Position numbers and translations under genes: made by a program. Shown one piece after another: positions 6,284-64,000 of a stretch of 64,000 nucleotides of DNA. Below the pieces are notes generated by a model, which was not told the origin of the DNA, did no database searches, and was given only the letters and a program-made list of their open reading frames with translations. The first letter of the stretch is position 1, and every line of letters starts with the position of its first letter. The stretch is taken from NCBI GenBank assembly GCA_035473395.1, contig DATIOF010000088.1:196-64195 (forward strand), in the 5' to 3' direction. The stretch is from Gaiellaceae bacterium. GTDB lineage: Bacteria > Actinomycetota > Thermoleophilia > Gaiellales > Gaiellaceae.

Positions 6284-6844
6284 CTAGACCTCCATGATCT
6301 CCGCTTCCTTCTTCTTCAGCAGCTCGTCGATCTCGTGGACGTGGTCGTCCGTGAGCTTCTGGACGCGCTCCTCGGCCCGGTGCTCCTCGTCGCTGCCGGC
6401 CTCGCCCTTGTCGACCAGCTCCTTCAGGTGGTGGATCGCGTCGCGGCGGACGTTGCGCACGGCGACCCTCCCCTCCTCCGCCATGTTCCGCACGACCTTG
6501 ACGAGCTCCTTGCGCCGCTCCTCGGTCAGCTGCGGGATCGGTAGTCGGATCAGCTTGCCGTCATTCGAGGGCGTGAGACCGAGGTCGGACTCCTGGATCG
6601 CGCGCTCGATGGTCGCGACCGAGCCCGGGTCGAACGGCTGGATCGTCAGCAGGCGCGGCTCCGGCGCCCCGATCGTCGCCAGCTGCTTGAGGGGCGTCTG
6701 CTGGCCGTAGTAGTCGATCTGCACGCGATCGAGAAGCGCCGGCGAGGCACGTCCGGTGCGCAACGTCGAGAACTCGTTCTGCGCGGCCTCGACGGACTTG
6801 TCCATCCGCCTCGTCGCGTCCTGAATCAGGTCATCGATCGCCAT
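6284..6844 (-). CDS. frr: Ribosome recycling factor
   Basis: 186 aa: FSTLRTGRASPALLDRVQIDYYG...LPIPQLTEERRKELVK. GAGGAGG lies 5 nt upstream of the ATG. Confidence 0.95.
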   Translation of the reverse strand: MAIDDLIQDATRRMDKSVEAAQNEFSTLRTGRASPALLDRVQIDYYGQQTPLKQLATIGAPEPRLLTIQPFDPGSVATIERAIQESDLGLTPSNDGKLIRLPIPQLTEERRKELVKVVRNMAEEGRVAVRNVRRDAIHHLKELVDKGEAGSDEEHRAEERVQKLTDDHVHEIDELLKKKEAEIMEV

Positions 6845-8525: not shown

Positions 8526-9385
8526 GAGCCCTCCTCCGGCGCGTCGGGGACGGGAACGGGCTCCGGCTCCGCCGCCGGCTCGGGCGGCGCTTCGGCCTCG
8601 GGCTCCGCGGGAGCTTCCGGCTCCGCGGGAGCTTCGGGCTCCGCGGCAGCCTCGGGCTCGGGCTGCGTCTCCTCGGCCGGCGCGGGCTCGAAGTCGGCGG
8701 GCTTGGCGCGCTGCTTGCCCTCCGCGATCGAGTCGCCGAGCGCGTGCACGATCAGGCTGCACGAGCGGATCGCGTCGTCATTGCCCGGGATCACGAAGTC
8801 GGCCTCGTCCGGGTCGCAGTTGGTGTCGACGAGCGCGATCACCGGCATCCCCAGTCGGCGCGCTTCCTTCACGGCGAGCTGCTCCTTGCGCAGGTCGACG
8901 ATGAAGATCGCGTCGGGCTGCTTGCGCATGTCCGCGACGCCGCCGAGGTTCGCCTCGAGCTTCTCGAGCTCGGCCTGCATCGAGATCCGCTCCTTGGGCG
9001 GCAGCAGGTCGAGCTGGCCCTCGTCACGCAGCCGCCGCAGCTCGTGCAGGTGCTCGATGCGCTCCGAGATCGTGCGCCAGTTGGTGAGCAGGCCGCCGAG
9101 CCAGCGGTGATTCACATACGGCATACCGGTGCGCTTGGCCTCTTCCGCGACCGAGTCCTGGGCCTGCTTCTTGGTGCCGACGAAGAGCACGGTGCCGCCC
9201 CGCTCGGCGAGGTTGCGGACGAAGCTCTGCGCCTCCTCGAGGCTCTCGAGCGTCTTCTGCAGGTCAATGATGTAGATCCCGCCGCGCTCGCCGAAGATGA
9301 AACGCCGCATCTTCGGGTTCCAGCGGCGCGTCTGGTGGCCGAAATGGACGCCGGCCTCCAGGAGCTCTCGCATGCTGACTGCCAT
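8522..9385 (-). CDS. rpsB: 30S ribosomal protein S2 with an acidic Pro/Glu/Ala-rich C-terminal extension
   Basis: [45 protein letters not shown]. The tail reads ...[23 protein letters not shown]. Confidence 0.95.
8601..8654. repeat. Three tandem 18-bp units (ggctccgcgggagcttcc and variants) inside the rpsB 3' end
   Basis: Read directly: 8601-8618, 8619-8636 and 8637-8654. On the minus strand they encode repeated (E)APAEP units. Confidence 0.8.
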
Positions 9386-27093: not shown

Positions 27094-27852
27094 CGTCCGC
27101 TCCTAACCCGGCCCGGCGAGGGCGAGACCGTCACCGACCGGCCAGAGCGGACGCTCCGCATTCTCGGCGAGCTCGACGAGCTGATCGTGACCTGGTTTCG
27201 CTACGGGCCCGGCGAGAAGGGGCCGGAGGAGCACGTCCACCATCACCACACCGACGCCTTCTACGTGCTCGAGGGCGAGGTTGAGCTCACGCTCGGGGCC
27301 GAGCGGAACGTCGTGACGGCGCTGCCCGGCATGCTCGGGGCCGCGCCGCCGAACACGCTGCACACGTTCCGCAACGCGAGCGACGAGCCGTTCGTCCTCC
27401 TCAATCTCCACGTCCCGTCGTCGGGCTTCGGCGATCACATCCGCGGGCGCAACCCGTCCTTCGATCAGCACGACCCGCCACCCGACGGCGGCCGGCCGTT
27501 CGCCGACGCCGTCTTCGCCCGGCCGGATCAGGCCGAGACGCTCGAGAGCGACGTCAGCACCCACCGAGTCCTCTGCGACCTGCCGCAGCTGACTGCGATC
27601 GACATGACCTTCCAGCCGGAGTTCGAGGGCGTCGACCCGCACACCCACACCGACCACACCGATGCCTTTTACGTGCTCGAGGGCGAGGTCGAGTTCCTCG
27701 TCGGCGACGAGCCGCGCATCGTCGGGCCCGGGACGTTCGTCGCTGCGCCGCCCGAAACCGTGCACGGCTTCCGCCCCGCAGGGCTCGAGCCGATTCGCAT
27801 GCTCAACCTGCATGCCCCGCCCGCCGGCTTCCTCGAGCGCCTGCGCCGTTAG
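27070..27852 (+). CDS. Bicupin protein
   Basis: Two cupin modules, each with HxH..D.FYVLEGEVE...P...H.F.N (HVHHHHTDAFYVLEGEVE and HTHTDHTDAFYVLEGEVE). GC3 is very high. The opposite-strand ORF 27103..27993 is Arg-rich junk. Confidence 0.85.
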   Translation: MGVQLDDQRPLLTRPGEGETVTDRPERTLRILGELDELIVTWFRYGPGEKGPEEHVHHHHTDAFYVLEGEVELTLGAERNVVTALPGMLGAAPPNTLHTFRNASDEPFVLLNLHVPSSGFGDHIRGRNPSFDQHDPPPDGGRPFADAVFARPDQAETLESDVSTHRVLCDLPQLTAIDMTFQPEFEGVDPHTHTDHTDAFYVLEGEVEFLVGDEPRIVGPGTFVAAPPETVHGFRPAGLEPIRMLNLHAPPAGFLERLRR

Positions 27853-36665: not shown

Positions 36666-37643
36666 ATGAAGCGCCTGCTGCTAGCGATCCTCGCAGCGTG
36701 CCTCGTGAGCGCGCCGGCGGGCGCGGGCGGCACGGCCCCGTGGAGCAGGATCGCCTTCGGACGCGACCTCGGCGGGGTGAGCGGCGATCTGACGAGCCTC
36801 TACACCGTCCGGCCCGACGGCGGCGGCCTGCAGCGGCTGACGGTGCCGCCGACCAGGCAGGCGCTCGGCGGCGACTCCGGGCCCGTCTGGGCGCCCGGCG
36901 GCCGGAGCCTCGTCTTCGAGCGGAACCTGCCCTACTGGGGGACGGACCGGATGCGACTGATGGCGGTCTCCGCGCGCGGCGGAGCGGCGCGACAGCTGAC
37001 CAGCGGCCCGTTCGATGCGATGCCCTCGTTCTCGCCGGACGGCAAGCGGATCGCCTTCACGCGCGTCGTGCAGTCGGTCGTCGCCCCGACGGCCTCGCTC
37101 TTCACGATGGACGGCGCGGGCCGGCACCTCGAGCCGCTGCTCGCCGACGGGATCGACCTCTCGGCCGCCTGGTCGCCGGACGGATCGACGATCGCGTTCT
37201 CGCGGCTCGAGTCGGTCAGCCGCCCGCTCGCCGAGGCGACGCTCTACCTGGCCGACAAGGACGGCTCGCACGTGCGCAGCCTCGGGCTGCACGGCCTCTC
37301 GGCGGCGTGGTCGCCCGACGGCAAGCGGCTCGCCTTCGTCTCCTTCGACGACGCCAACGCGCCCGCCTGCTCGGCCGCCTCGTGCCCGCCGAGCGGCGAG
37401 CTTTACGTCGTCGGCGCCGATGGAAGCGGGCTCAGGCGCCTGACCCGCAGCAAGGCCGACGACGAGCATCCGAGCTGGTCGCCGGACGGCTCGCGGATCG
37501 CCTTCGCGAGCGGCTTCGACGTGCGCAGCCAGGGCCATGCGCCCTGGCTGATGGTGATGCGAGCCTTCGGCGGCAAGCCGGTGCGGATCGGCCACGTGAG
37601 CGGCGTGATCGACCCGTCCTGGAGCCCGGCAGGCGTTCGGTAG
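36666..37643 (+). CDS. Secreted TolB-like beta-propeller (PD40/WD40-like repeat) protein
   Basis: Signal peptide MKRLLLAILAACLVSAPAGA. Repeated SPDGKRIAF, WSPDGSTIAF, WSPDGKRLAF and WSPDGSRIAF units. Confidence 0.85.
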   Translation: MKRLLLAILAACLVSAPAGAGGTAPWSRIAFGRDLGGVSGDLTSLYTVRPDGGGLQRLTVPPTRQALGGDSGPVWAPGGRSLVFERNLPYWGTDRMRLMAVSARGGAARQLTSGPFDAMPSFSPDGKRIAFTRVVQSVVAPTASLFTMDGAGRHLEPLLADGIDLSAAWSPDGSTIAFSRLESVSRPLAEATLYLADKDGSHVRSLGLHGLSAAWSPDGKRLAFVSFDDANAPACSAASCPPSGELYVVGADGSGLRRLTRSKADDEHPSWSPDGSRIAFASGFDVRSQGHAPWLMVMRAFGGKPVRIGHVSGVIDPSWSPAGVR

Positions 37644-54607: not shown

Positions 54608-55496
54608 CCGCAGTAGCGGCTGTGGCCGGCAGCGGCGGCAAGGCTCCGTCCGAGGCCGAGTCCTTGACGCCGTAATGGCCTGCGGGCTGCCCGGCGAGCA
54701 GCAGCATCAGGGCGAGCCGTCCGACCGACGTGTCCACGTCGTCCACGGTCGAGAGACCCGCCTGCCGGTAGACCGCCGTAGCCGAATCGGCCGCGTCCGT
54801 CTGCTCGGCGCCGACGGCAGGTACGCCGTTGGACCCGAGGCCTTCGTACAGCCCGAGCAGGAACTTCGTCGTCCCGCCGTGTTGTGGGGCGACGGTGCGC
54901 ACCACGACCACGCCGTCCGCCGGCATCTTGTTGCCCCCGTGCTGCTCCTCGACGAGGGACGCACCGTTGGCAAGCGAGTCGAGCAGCGGCGTGTCGCCGC
55001 CGACCACGAGCTCCTGACCGAGTGACTGGCCCAGGCGCTCCAGGTTCGCCTTGCCCCGCAGCCCCCTCGCCGCCGGCTGGCCTTTGAGCGCGGTCTCGAA
55101 CTGCTTGACGTCGATCGGCACCTTCAGCGCCCGCAGACGCACCTGCTGCGCGCCCGCGTCGGTCAGGGCCTGGGTGACCGACGAGCGGGTGCCACGGTCG
55201 ACCGAGCCGACGAAGACCACGGCGACCTGCTTGCCCTTCAGCCGGTTGTGCGCGAGCGTCGGGTACGTCTCGTTGATGAAGGTCTGGGCAGCCACGCGCT
55301 CGCGCGCCCGGTCGGCCGACTGGGTTGACCTGTTGTCGAGGCGGCGCTGCAGGCTCGCGACTTCGTCCTGCAGGAATTTCGTCTTCGCGCTGTCGACGAC
55401 GCCGCTGTCGGAGATGCCGACGCCGACCAGGATCCCGATGATCAGCGCGAGGAAGACGGCCGCCAGCGAGGCGACGTGGTAGCGGAGGTCGAACAT
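54600..55496 (-). CDS. MctB/SteB-like membrane-anchored protein (copper transporter family DUF3186)
   Basis: MFDLRYHVASLAAVFLALIIGILVGVG...coiled coil...VVFVG. Its position between steA and pyrG matches actinobacterial steB/mctB. The start is placed at Met22 of the track ORF. Confidence 0.75.
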
Positions 55497-55659
55497 CAGT
55501 GCCCTTTCAGGTAGTGCCGTCCACCCTCTGGGTCGCGAGCACCAAGCCAGGGGCCGCACTCGTCCGCAGCCGAGGCTGACTGCCTCGGCAAGGGCGAGGG
55601 TGGTTCCTGGCGCAGCGTGATCGCGGGCCAGAGGCGGACATGTGCTGCCTGGAAGGGCA
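55497..55659 (-). ncRNA. Candidate structured cis-regulatory leader RNA, copy 1 (upstream of the steB-like gene)
   Basis: 163-nt spacer that aligns ungapped with 62234-62396 at 128/163 positions (hand count). The outer helices covary around an invariant core. The 3' strand of the closing helix ends 2 nt before the AUG. Confidence 0.6.
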
Positions 55660-56082
55660 CTAGAGCTCGGCGGCAGTCTGGCACAGGGCGTAGAGGCGAT
55701 TGAGCGCGGTCCGCGGGAACGAACGGCGCAGTCCGACTAGGAACGGCCCGCTGACCGTCAGCTCGACGTTCGTGTGATGGTTGCCTGCGTCCTCGAGCGC
55801 GATCTCGACATCCAGGCGCTCGGTGGTCATGTACCAGGTGGCGCGCATCGGCGGCTCGACCTCGATCACTTGCAGCATGGACTCGGAGGCGGGCCGGCGC
55901 AGCAGCGAGGGCCGCATCGGGGCGTGCAGCTTCCAGCGCGCGCCGGGGGCAAGGCCGCGGCGGTCGGGCGTGACGGCGGCGACCCCAGGCCACCAGTCGG
56001 ACAGATGCCGTGGCTCGGCCAGGAAGAGCCAGACGTCCTCCAGCGGGGCGAGGAGCTCCTTGCGGGCGGTGTAGCTCGGCAT
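55660..56082 (-). CDS. SRPBCC (START/polyketide cyclase-like) family protein
   Basis: 140 aa: ...APLEDVWLFLAEPRHLSDWWPGV... Typical SRPBCC N-terminal pattern. Confidence 0.7.
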   Translation of the reverse strand: MPSYTARKELLAPLEDVWLFLAEPRHLSDWWPGVAAVTPDRRGLAPGARWKLHAPMRPSLLRRPASESMLQVIEVEPPMRATWYMTTERLDVEIALEDAGNHHTNVELTVSGPFLVGLRRSFPRTALNRLYALCQTAAEL

Positions 56083-61928: not shown

Positions 61929-62233
61929 CAGCTGATCTCCGCGATCTCGACGTCCACGCGCTCGACCTCGAGGCCGGTGACCTGCGCCACCGCCTCACCC
62001 ACGCGCTCCTGCACGGCGCGGGCGAGCCCGGGCAGTGGCTCTGTGGACGTGGCGCCCAGCTCCAGCGAGACCGACGCGCGACCGTCGGCGTGGCGGACCT
62101 CGACCGCCCGCCGCGGCCTGCGCAGGCGTACGCCGTCGACGCTGCGCGCAGCGCCCGCCACGAGCTCGGTGAGCGCGGCCGCGGTCAGCGTGATCGACCC
62201 CTCCGGCCCGCGGAAGACGAGCGGCTCGGTCAC
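61928..62233 (-). CDS. Asp23/Gls24-family (alkaline shock protein-like) protein
   Basis: 101 aa: ...ITLTAAALTELVAGAARSVDGV...VQERVGEAVAQVTGLEVERVDVEI. Its position between accC and nusB matches Bacillus yqhY. Confidence 0.85.
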   Translation of the reverse strand: MTEPLVFRGPEGSITLTAAALTELVAGAARSVDGVRLRRPRRAVEVRHADGRASVSLELGATSTEPLPGLARAVQERVGEAVAQVTGLEVERVDVEIAEIS

Positions 62234-62396
62234 CTGTGCTCCTCCAGGTGATGCAGCCCGGATTCTGGGTCGCGAGCATCAAGCCAGGGGCCACGATCGT
62301 CTGCGGCCAAGGCTGGTTGCCTTCGCAAGGGCGAGCGTGGTTCCTGGCGCCGCATGATCGCGGGCCAGAACCGGGTATGCGCCGCCTGGGGGAGCA
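62234..62396 (-). ncRNA. Candidate structured cis-regulatory leader RNA, copy 2 (upstream of asp23)
   Basis: 163-nt spacer, paralogous to 55497-55659. The 3' strand of the closing helix, CCUGGAGGAGCAC, contains the GGAGGAG ribosome-binding site of asp23. Confidence 0.6.
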
Positions 62397-63751
<1,355 letters not shown>

Positions 63752-63752
<1 letters not shown>

Positions 63753-64000
63753 CAGAGCGCGTCGAGCGGCGGCGGTCCGACCGGCTCGAGCTCGAACAGC
63801 AGCTGGCCGAACTCGACCGGCTCGGCGTTGCCGACGTTGATCGTGCGAACGATCCCGGCCGCGTCGGCCTTGATCTCGTTCATCAGTTTCATCGCCTCGA
63901 GGATGCAGAGCGTCTGGCCCTGCGCGACCGTGTCGCCCTCCTGGACGAACGGCGGCGCACCGGGCTGCGGCGCGCGGTAGAAGACGCCGACCATCGGAGC
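63752..64000 (-). CDS. accB: Biotin carboxyl carrier protein, C-terminal part (5' end beyond the right edge)
   Basis: ...GQTLCILEAMKLMNEIKADAAGIV (biotinyl-Lys motif EAMKLMN). The frame is open to position 64000. Confidence 0.9.

Follow-up and report, generated by a model that had tools for sequence, protein, structure and literature searches.

A dispersed palindromic repeat, probably a small mobile element, at operon junctions of Gaiellales

Miniature inverted-repeat transposable elements (MITEs) with TA flanks and long RNA hairpins are known from several bacterial groups, examples being Correia elements in Neisseria, ERIC/YPAL in enterobacteria, RUP in pneumococcus, and Nezha in cyanobacteria. 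TA or CTAG flanks are the classic mark of IS630/Tc1-type DDE elements. Here, we analyzed a 64,000-nt stretch of DNA from a Gaiellaceae bacterium (GenBank assembly GCA_035473395.1, contig DATIOF010000088.1, positions 196 to 64,195 of the forward strand), referred to below as the window, in which a 162-nt palindromic repeat occupies two intergenic spacers, one of them upstream of asp23. An earlier note on this DNA had interpreted the asp23 spacer as a structured leader with riboswitch- or thermosensor-like logic. The class of bacterial small mobile repeats has been reviewed (PMC3184786). For the MIRUs, the summary of Supply et al. (1997) given in that review describes re-initiation and a small open reading frame (ORF) that overlaps the stop and start codons of the neighboring genes. 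Furthermore, translational coupling by RNA unfolding is described for phage f1 genes VII/IX, for the MS2 coat-lysis pair, and for Escherichia coli rpmI-rplT (PMC12548453).

We consider it probable (roughly 75%) that both spacers are copies of a TA-flanked, dispersed repeat of about 162 nt that is palindromic over its whole length, is of the MITE/REPIN kind, and is specific to Gaiellales (Actinomycetota). The repeat matches none of the small mobile repeats compared below in sequence, and it has two unusual traits, namely a portable coupling cassette and a wobble polarity restricted to one strand.

Unless a locus is named, the coordinates below are window positions, and both window elements are on the minus strand. 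The spacer between the accC stop codon (TAG, 62397-62399) and the asp23 start codon (GTG, 62231-62233) comprises 163 nt (62234-62396). The second spacer (55497-55659), located between a gene for an SRPBCC/polyketide-cyclase-like protein and mctB, is likewise 163 nt long. The gene orders according to Pfam are accB-accC-element-asp23-nusB and SRPBCC-element-MctB. A gapless alignment of the two spacers gave 128/163 identical positions, and transitions account for 26 of the 35 mismatches; the geometry and the identity claimed in the earlier note were thus reproduced exactly. Within the window, the two halves of the conserved core were detected nowhere outside the two spacers, with a chance expectation of 0. 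According to the boundaries in an alignment of 109 copies, the repeat unit itself is 162 nt long, and its first base is the G of the upstream TAG. By this alignment and the hairpin fold, copy 2 (GTG...CAC, between accC and asp23) extends from 62236 to 62397, while copy 1, placed by alignment, fold, and Pfam neighbors between the SRPBCC/polyketide-cyclase-like gene and mctB, extends from 55499 to 55660.

The repeat is dispersed in Gaiellales. A scan with the exact 3' core CCCTGGCTTGNTGCTCGCGACCC, using one genome per species, yielded 110 sites, with 1 to 7 sites per assembly. All 110 are in metagenome-assembled genomes (MAGs) labeled Gaiellales, Gaiellaceae, or unclassified Actinomycetota. In copy 2, the 3' core arm that provided the genome-scan query is GGCCCCTGGCTTGRTGCTCGCGACCCAGA (62264..62292, minus strand). 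The 5' core arm TCTGGCCCGCGATCAYGCNGCGCCAGGAACCAC (62337..62369, minus strand), the pairs of which are nearly invariant, was used as the query for a scan of metagenomes, and at least 120 soil-metagenome contigs matched. Only 3 of the 55 full metagenome copies among the matches listed contain the exact 3' core, and most of these 55 represent a subfamily characterized by the compensatory change CCAGAG/CTCTGG. Since the metagenome copies mostly lack the exact 3' core, the family is larger than either scan shows. Indeed, an nhmmer search over 0.85 Mb of flanking sequence revealed approximately seven more copies, about one per 120 kb, as well as diverged relatives carrying the central motif. Complete chromosomes of 2.8 to 3.0 Mb harbor one or two exact-core copies each, and genome-specific subfamilies are present. 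No match was found in a scan of viral contigs, and our literature search retrieved neither a description of the element nor anything on Gaiella repeats.

Two side observations were made on the family. Remoter hairpins at L038:~6560-6750, L070:~100-290, and L020:7495-7620 (L numbers designate loci) have only the central motif GCGCCAG...CTGGCTTGGT and the apical hairpin in common with the repeat. They are flanked by CTAG-like sequences, suggesting a wider superfamily. At L054:642-973, two copies are arranged head to tail with a single common TA, which could be due to insertion beside an existing copy or to tandem duplication.

The GC3>GC1>GC2 frame rule served to assign the coding strand next to the copies. 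Both neighboring genes run with the element in 56 of the 109 genome copies and against it in 17, while convergent and divergent neighbors were found in only five and three cases, respectively. In the metagenome copies, the neighbors run with the element in 27 cases and against it in 4. In total, the co-directional contexts amount to 83:21, a bias of about 4:1 with 21/104 copies reversed. Thus, the home of the element is operon-like strings of genes, in either orientation. The junctions are unrelated to each other: they include accB-accC, accC-asp23, and SRPBCC-mctB, positions before rpsC, rplP, and rpsM, and positions beside ABC permease genes. Pfam confirmed that genes for the ribosomal proteins S3, L16, and S13 are directly downstream of copies. 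A leader dedicated to asp23 or to a single regulon is refuted by this dispersal. At L024:6456-6617 and L024:7708-7869, we also observed a diverged subfamily with GTGGATC...GATCCAC ends, directly before the S3 and L16 genes of a ribosomal-protein operon; each of these two copies has TAGTG/TAATG overlaps.

To compare orthologous junctions, the flanks of each copy were blasted against all loci. This revealed 44 filled and 23 empty junction pairs. For example, the accB-accC junction of the window (63740-63770, with a TGATG overlap at 63752) is an empty site, but L012 and L018 each carry a copy at this junction, with insertion points that are a few nucleotides apart (after TAA-TA versus TAAG-TA). 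Similarly, L020 has a copy at the junction before the S13 gene, while L091 has none there. The junction of copy 1 is also filled in L102, L105, and L110. Among the 109 copies, there are only 13 groups sharing an orthologous site, and the insertion sites differ almost completely between species. The dispersal, together with junctions that are filled in some relatives and empty in others, points to a mobile repeat, the very outcome that the earlier note had named as speaking against its own proposal.

The copies at orthologous sites also bear on a different explanation, according to which the element is a host-domesticated, operon-internal device that rarely spreads and is kept at each locus for tuning expression by coupling, mRNA stability, or processing by RNase III/E. 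Copies at orthologous sites are 79 to 97% identical, compared to 70 to 87% for their coding flanks, and the element was the better-conserved part in 15 of 16 scorable pairs from different genomes. Furthermore, orthologous-site copies differ from each other by 42 double compensatory changes. This conservation, the low copy number, the location in essential and highly expressed operons, and an architecture that fits the RNA-unfolding model of coupling (PMC12548453) are in line with domestication. On the other hand, apart from the 13 orthologous groups the sites differ between species, and a junction that is filled in one genome may be empty in a relative, where nothing evident replaces the element. 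The genome-specific subfamilies suggest proliferation or homogenization within genomes, and the strand on which pairing is selected (see below) is fixed even where it is not the mRNA. We regard this explanation as unlikely.

Next, we analyzed the fold. The gene-sense strand of each copy forms one rod-like, long imperfect hairpin, with -98.1 kcal/mol for copy 2 and -102.7 kcal/mol for copy 1. Compared to shuffled sequences, the z scores of the hairpin folds were -7.6 and -7.8, and none of 200 shuffles folded equally well. The helices P1 and P2, the core, and the apical helix described in the earlier note are all present in the computed fold. Covariation was evaluated with 107 distinct copies and a merged structure of 66 pairs. 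Standard pairs were found in 95.1% of the cells, whereas only 38 to 47% of cells paired in controls with slid alignments. Two-sided changes were detected in 39 of the 66 pairs (431 cells), and none of 500 shuffles reached the observed values. Thus, the fold is selected and is not a drifting spacer, as had been suggested from two copies.

In the outer half of the hairpin, the sequence is variable and shows covariation; further inside is a helical core, with small internal loops that are fixed, and this core hardly varies at all. In copy 2, the 5' strand of the terminal helix, GUGCUCCCCCAGG (62385..62397, minus strand), begins within the upstream stop codon, as given by the fold and by columns 1-19 pairing with 172-190 in the covariation set. 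The 3' strand, CCUGGAGGAGCAC (62236..62248, minus strand), holds the Shine-Dalgarno (SD)-like sequence GGAGGAG (62239-62245), which ends 5 nt before the asp23 GTG. In copy 1, the terminal helix 3' strand contains the SD-like GAAAGGG (55502..55508, minus strand), 5 nt before the ATG at 55494-55496. Burial of the SD sequence in the terminal helix before the start codon, first noted for the asp23 spacer, was seen in both copies and throughout the family. The most variable part of the element is the apical hairpin, GCGAAGGC-AACCA-GCCUUGGC (62306..62326, minus strand), which is supported by the fold and corresponds to helix 4 of the covariation set.

A new riboswitch- or thermosensor-like leader, in which a ligand or temperature would control asp23 and mctB via SD sequestration in P1, could in principle account for the paired SD-like run, a trait that alone does not define this class, and for the strong covariation. 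It would also agree with the Rfam results. The whole window had no match at the gathering score, and at E-value thresholds the spacer matched only weakly, to models of miRNA precursors, which are generic long hairpins; this agrees with the earlier note, in which the core could not be matched by eye to an RNA class. However, the element is a single rod-like hairpin with a variable 5-nt loop, in which 95% of the stem cells are paired and which has neither a multihelix junction nor a conserved unpaired pocket. Moreover, it is present at dozens of unrelated junctions in both orientations, and orthologous junctions are both filled and empty. In addition, the window mRNA strand contains 881 A.C mismatch cells that are G.U pairs only on the other strand. 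With the unrelated junctions, both orientations, the missing pocket, and a polarity on the antisense strand, the riboswitch or thermosensor logic of the earlier note is not borne out, and we give this explanation next to no credence. We infer that the element does not serve asp23 as a sensor of ligands or temperature.

An intrinsic terminator was also considered and rejected: there is no terminator-like site at either copy, and the start codon follows directly after the hairpin. More generally, no promoter-like or terminator-like site was found in or beside the window copies, and therefore the readings as a terminator or as a carrier of its own promoter were dismissed.

The termini resemble those of a mobile element. 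In the 109-copy alignment, conservation starts with GTGCCCC directly after (C)TA and stops with GGGGCAC directly before TA(G). The unit from GTG to CAC is 162 nt long in 76/109 copies. Its ends GTGCCCCTCCAGG and CCTGRAGGGGCAC pair with each other as terminal inverted repeats, and no transposase is encoded. A TA flank is present on the left in 62, on the right in 52, and on both sides in 38 of 93 copies, in a genome with 71% G+C. A further inverted repeat around copy 2 (62202-62226/62416-62440, 76% over 25 nt) was taken as chance.

The position of the copies relative to stop and start codons was analyzed in the 73 co-directional genome copies (56 with and 17 against the genes). In 42 of them, the upstream stop codon is at offset -2, so that TAG consists of the flanking TA and the first G of the element; most of the other stop codons are within a few codons. 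Frame 0, starting from the element's GTG, which overlaps the stop codon (TAGTG), ends at +1 or +4 in 63/73 copies. The downstream start codon is at +3 or +4 in 49/73, giving the overlaps TAATG, TGATG, TAGTG, or GTGA. In 54/73 copies, the sense strand has an SD-like purine run among its final 14 nt; the run lies 5 to 6 nt before the start codon and is base-paired to the first nucleotides of the element. Both window copies display the complete pattern of stop codon, ORF, SD, and start codon. In copy 2, the accC stop codon TAG (62397..62399, minus strand) is composed of the flanking TA and the first G and overlaps the frame-0 GTG. In the bridging mini-ORF (62230..62397, minus strand), this GTG is followed by 55 sense codons and by a TGA that shares bases with the asp23 GTG (GTGA). 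The mini-ORF of copy 1 (55496..55660, minus strand) starts with a GTG overlapping the upstream TAG, has 54 codons, and ends with a TGA overlapping the mctB ATG (TGATG).

The unit has a length of 3n, and consequently a TA insertion into a stop codon recreates the upstream stop, while the original stop codon, with its original relation to the next start, lands in frame 0. We asked whether frame 0, 54 codons long, is kept open on the transcribed strand by redistributing the substitutions of each 162-nt genome copy over the variable sites. Sense frame 0 was open in 40/40 gene-parallel copies (expected 25.7; P<0.002) and in 14/15 gene-reversed copies (expected 8.6; P=0.004), whereas the antisense frame 0 was open about as often as expected. 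In the metagenome copies listed, frame 0 was open in 24/26 cases in sense and in 7/26 in antisense. Indel lengths were dropped as a proof of frame upkeep, because all copies of the 165-nt class belong to one subfamily, in which the loop is longer by 3 nt.

These features can be combined into a model of insertion and tolerance. The element would insert at TA, with a preference for a CTAG-like context. Since the genome has 71% G+C, TA/CTAG sites would survive mainly within stop codons. Insertions into operons, including those for ribosomal proteins, may be tolerated because translational coupling is retained by one or both of two routes. According to the first, the ribosome terminating at UAG would melt the first ~8 bp of the terminal helix and thereby free the SD sequence. 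By the geometry of its helicase, a ribosome at termination opens several nucleotides beyond the A site. Since the SD strand is paired to a 5' strand whose first base belongs to the stop codon, the terminating ribosome should expose the SD. According to the second route, ribosomes may re-initiate at the overlapping GUG, translate across the hairpin, and terminate on the stop codon that overlaps the next start. In this respect, the proposal that the closing helix blocks initiation is plausible, but a ligand or heat is not the likely trigger; an upstream ribosome is the likelier one.

The second unusual trait is the polarity of the wobble pairs. The opposite strand of copy 2 folds better than the gene-sense strand (-119.1 kcal/mol), and this is general: with RNA parameters, the strand antisense to the window genes folds better in 164/164 copies (109 from genomes and 55 from metagenomes). 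The advantage of this strand is ~26 kcal/mol in the 109/109 genome copies (~14 kcal/mol with DNA parameters) and ~23 kcal/mol in the 55/55 metagenome copies. In the consensus structure, 881 cells of the better-folding strand are G.U and 71 are A.C; in the window gene-sense strand, the counts are reversed and just 83.6% of cells are paired. The polarity did not change with the direction of the neighboring genes. Furthermore, orthologous-site copies differ by 74 single changes between Watson-Crick and G.U pairs on the better-folding strand, compared to 11 on its complement; counted separately, the two site classes gave ratios of 52:7 and 22:4. The fixed strand implies that whatever maintains the pairing sees one strand of the element and not the host mRNA, and that selection does not act on the asp23 mRNA leader as a sensor. 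A cause at the mRNA level was rejected, because the predicted dependence on strand or orientation is absent from the data. Transcription- or replication-linked deamination was rejected as well, since it predicts either the wrong strand or an orientation dependence that the data lack. A link to replication was sought by comparing the GC skew of the flanks with the element orientation, and no signal was obtained.

The polarity suggests a single-stranded DNA stage (similar to REPIN/RAYT, IS200/IS605, or attC), a transcript of the element's own, or a strand-asymmetric repair process as its source. If the fold serves a single-stranded DNA intermediate, the element would be of a REPIN-, IS200/IS605-, or attC-like type handled strand-specifically by an enzyme of the HUH or tyrosine recombinase type instead of a DDE MITE, and effects on translation would be secondary. 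We see this as a possible alternative, which we hold only tentatively. One fixed strand folds better in all 164 copies with RNA parameters, and DNA parameters agree for 109/109; the excess of G.T(U) over A.C cells (881 versus 71) is on that strand, and the polarity is the same in both gene-orientation classes and between orthologous-site copies. The internal helical core, and not the termini, is the most conserved part, as expected of a site for a structure-specific protein. Moreover, REPINs, which are also long hairpins, were proposed to move as single strands (PMC3116915). Nevertheless, neither a Y1/HUH (RAYT) gene nor another recurrent gene was seen beside the copies when the 551 neighboring ORFs were clustered. 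Neither of the tags that mark REP classes, GTAG and CGTC, is present at the ends (PMC3733652). In the majority orientation, the well-folding strand would be the presumed leading-strand template where genes are co-directional, opposite to the IS608 paradigm. In addition, the TA/CTAG flanks are of the classic IS630/Tc1-type DDE kind.

A separate transcription of the better-folding strand, giving cis-antisense hairpin RNAs over the stop/start junctions, would be favored by a polarity toward the strand that is antisense to most host genes and by the orientation bias of 83:21. We consider it very improbable, because no promoter- or terminator-like signal is in or next to the window copies, the well-folding strand is within the mRNA in 21 copies, and there is no other sign of independent transcription. 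Finally, the repeat could be a strand-specific hairpin element, the core of which is a site for a trans-acting enzyme on one strand, either of the DNA or of its own RNA, and which has been partly domesticated as an operon coupler, having evolved into a portable coupling cassette with which it can reside in essential operons. This reading is doubtful, but if it is true, some copies may persist because the host depends on the enforced coupling.

Several observations weigh against our favored explanation, a TA-flanked mobile repeat of the MITE/REPIN kind. Flanks other than TA do not match each other, and therefore a target-site duplication is indistinguishable from a TA that is part of the element; pairs of empty and filled sites are too diverged to show a TA duplication. 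No recurrent gene family was found among the 551 ORFs beside copies, and nhmmer detected neither isolated terminal repeats nor an autonomous insertion sequence (IS) with the same termini in the ~0.85 Mb of flanks. The copy number is low for a classical MITE. The higher conservation of the copies compared to their flanks must reflect constraint in situ, homogenization, or re-insertion, and not neutral decay. The wobble polarity is predicted neither by double-stranded cut-and-paste nor by a function at the mRNA level. As for the bridge ORF, the copies are related and not independent, so that the test for ORF maintenance is indicative but not conclusive, and frame 0 is broken in ~6 of the 73 co-directional copies, which means that the ORF is not indispensable.

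In the neighbor ORF clustering, the only element-linked cluster among the 551 ORFs was an artifact of ORFs that cross the repeat. Long ORF calls at L037:5852-7012 and L080:3492-4286 cross the element in another frame and cluster solely through the repeat; such read-through calls probably give rise to false or overlong protein predictions in MAGs of Gaiellales.

For annotation, our analysis removes a false riboswitch candidate, and the riboswitch label should be dropped. It also shows that covariation between two copies need not indicate a sensor RNA but can be produced by a repeat family. At the operon junctions of Gaiellales, a recognizable 162-nt element accounts for odd spacers of 163 nt as well as for small ORFs that are spurious and ORF calls that are extended, and the annotation of these abundant, barely cultured soil Actinomycetota benefits from it. 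Furthermore, the element is a natural example of an insertion that brings along a stop codon, a bridge ORF, a masked SD, and a stop/start overlap for the coupling of cistrons, and the models of coupling by RNA unfolding and by re-initiation become testable with one portable module. The wobble polarity is a lead toward a mechanism of mobilization or maintenance that is specific for single strands.

Other repeats in the window are of different kinds. An 18-nt tandem repeat, GGAGCTTCCGGCTCCGCG (8592-8667, about 4 copies; family D11), may encode a short peptide repeat. An 84-nt direct repeat (27231-27314 and 27639-27722; family D17), with 76% identity and a distance of 408 nt, resembles a duplicated protein domain or paralogous neighboring genes. 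At 37032-37512, four repeats of ~34 nt with a spacing of ~140 nt (TCGCCGGACGGCAAGCGGATCGCCTTC) encode SPDGKRIAF, which presumably corresponds to beta-propeller repeats of the TolB/PD40 type.

Compared to known systems, the Gaiellales element resembles Correia, ERIC, RUP, and Nezha in many respects. Like these elements, it falls in the range of 100 to 170 bp, has no transposase of its own, and contains whole-length or terminal inverted repeats. It shares with them the TA at both ends, the intergenic dispersal, and the presence or absence at orthologous sites, as well as the cotranscription with neighboring genes and hairpins able to affect the mRNA. Unlike those MITEs, it has variable, covarying termini, a near-invariant internal core, and a low copy number, and it is located almost only on stop codons between co-directional genes. 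Further differences are the wobble pairs on one strand and the missing cognate IS in the ~0.85 Mb of flanks.

With REPINs, the element has in common the long imperfect extragenic hairpins, the maintenance of the pairing itself, and a suspected handling as single strands (PMC3116915). REPIN populations are also long-lasting at a modest copy number. In contrast to REPINs, the ends of the element lack a GTAG or CGTC tag, by which the classes are defined (PMC3733652), and no RAYT gene family recurs among the 551 ORFs beside the copies. In REPINs, the ends are conserved and the middle is variable, opposite to what is seen in the Gaiellales element, and bridging of stop and start codons is not known for them.

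As far as the MIRUs are described in the summary cited above, the likeness lies in an actinobacterial intergenic repeat of operons, with a small ORF that overlaps the flanking stop and start codons and with coupling that is kept. In the same summary, MIRUs are 40- to 100-bp direct tandem units (variable-number tandem repeats), while the Gaiellales element is a 162-nt palindrome over its whole length. There is no sequence similarity to MIRUs, and the pair at L054 is the only tandem arrangement.

Integron attC sites are similarly imperfect palindromes directly after an ORF, and their functional fold is on the strand antisense to the cassette genes. Unlike attC, the Gaiellales element has no integron context and no R/L box consensus, and its flanking genes are core housekeeping genes. 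Finally, as in f1, MS2, and rpmI-rplT, the downstream SD is masked by a sequence that the upstream ribosome must enter. In the Gaiellales element, the first base of the masking strand is part of the upstream stop codon. The structures of f1, MS2, and rpmI-rplT are fixed and gene specific, whereas the Gaiellales device is predicted to be portable and to arrive with the insertion.

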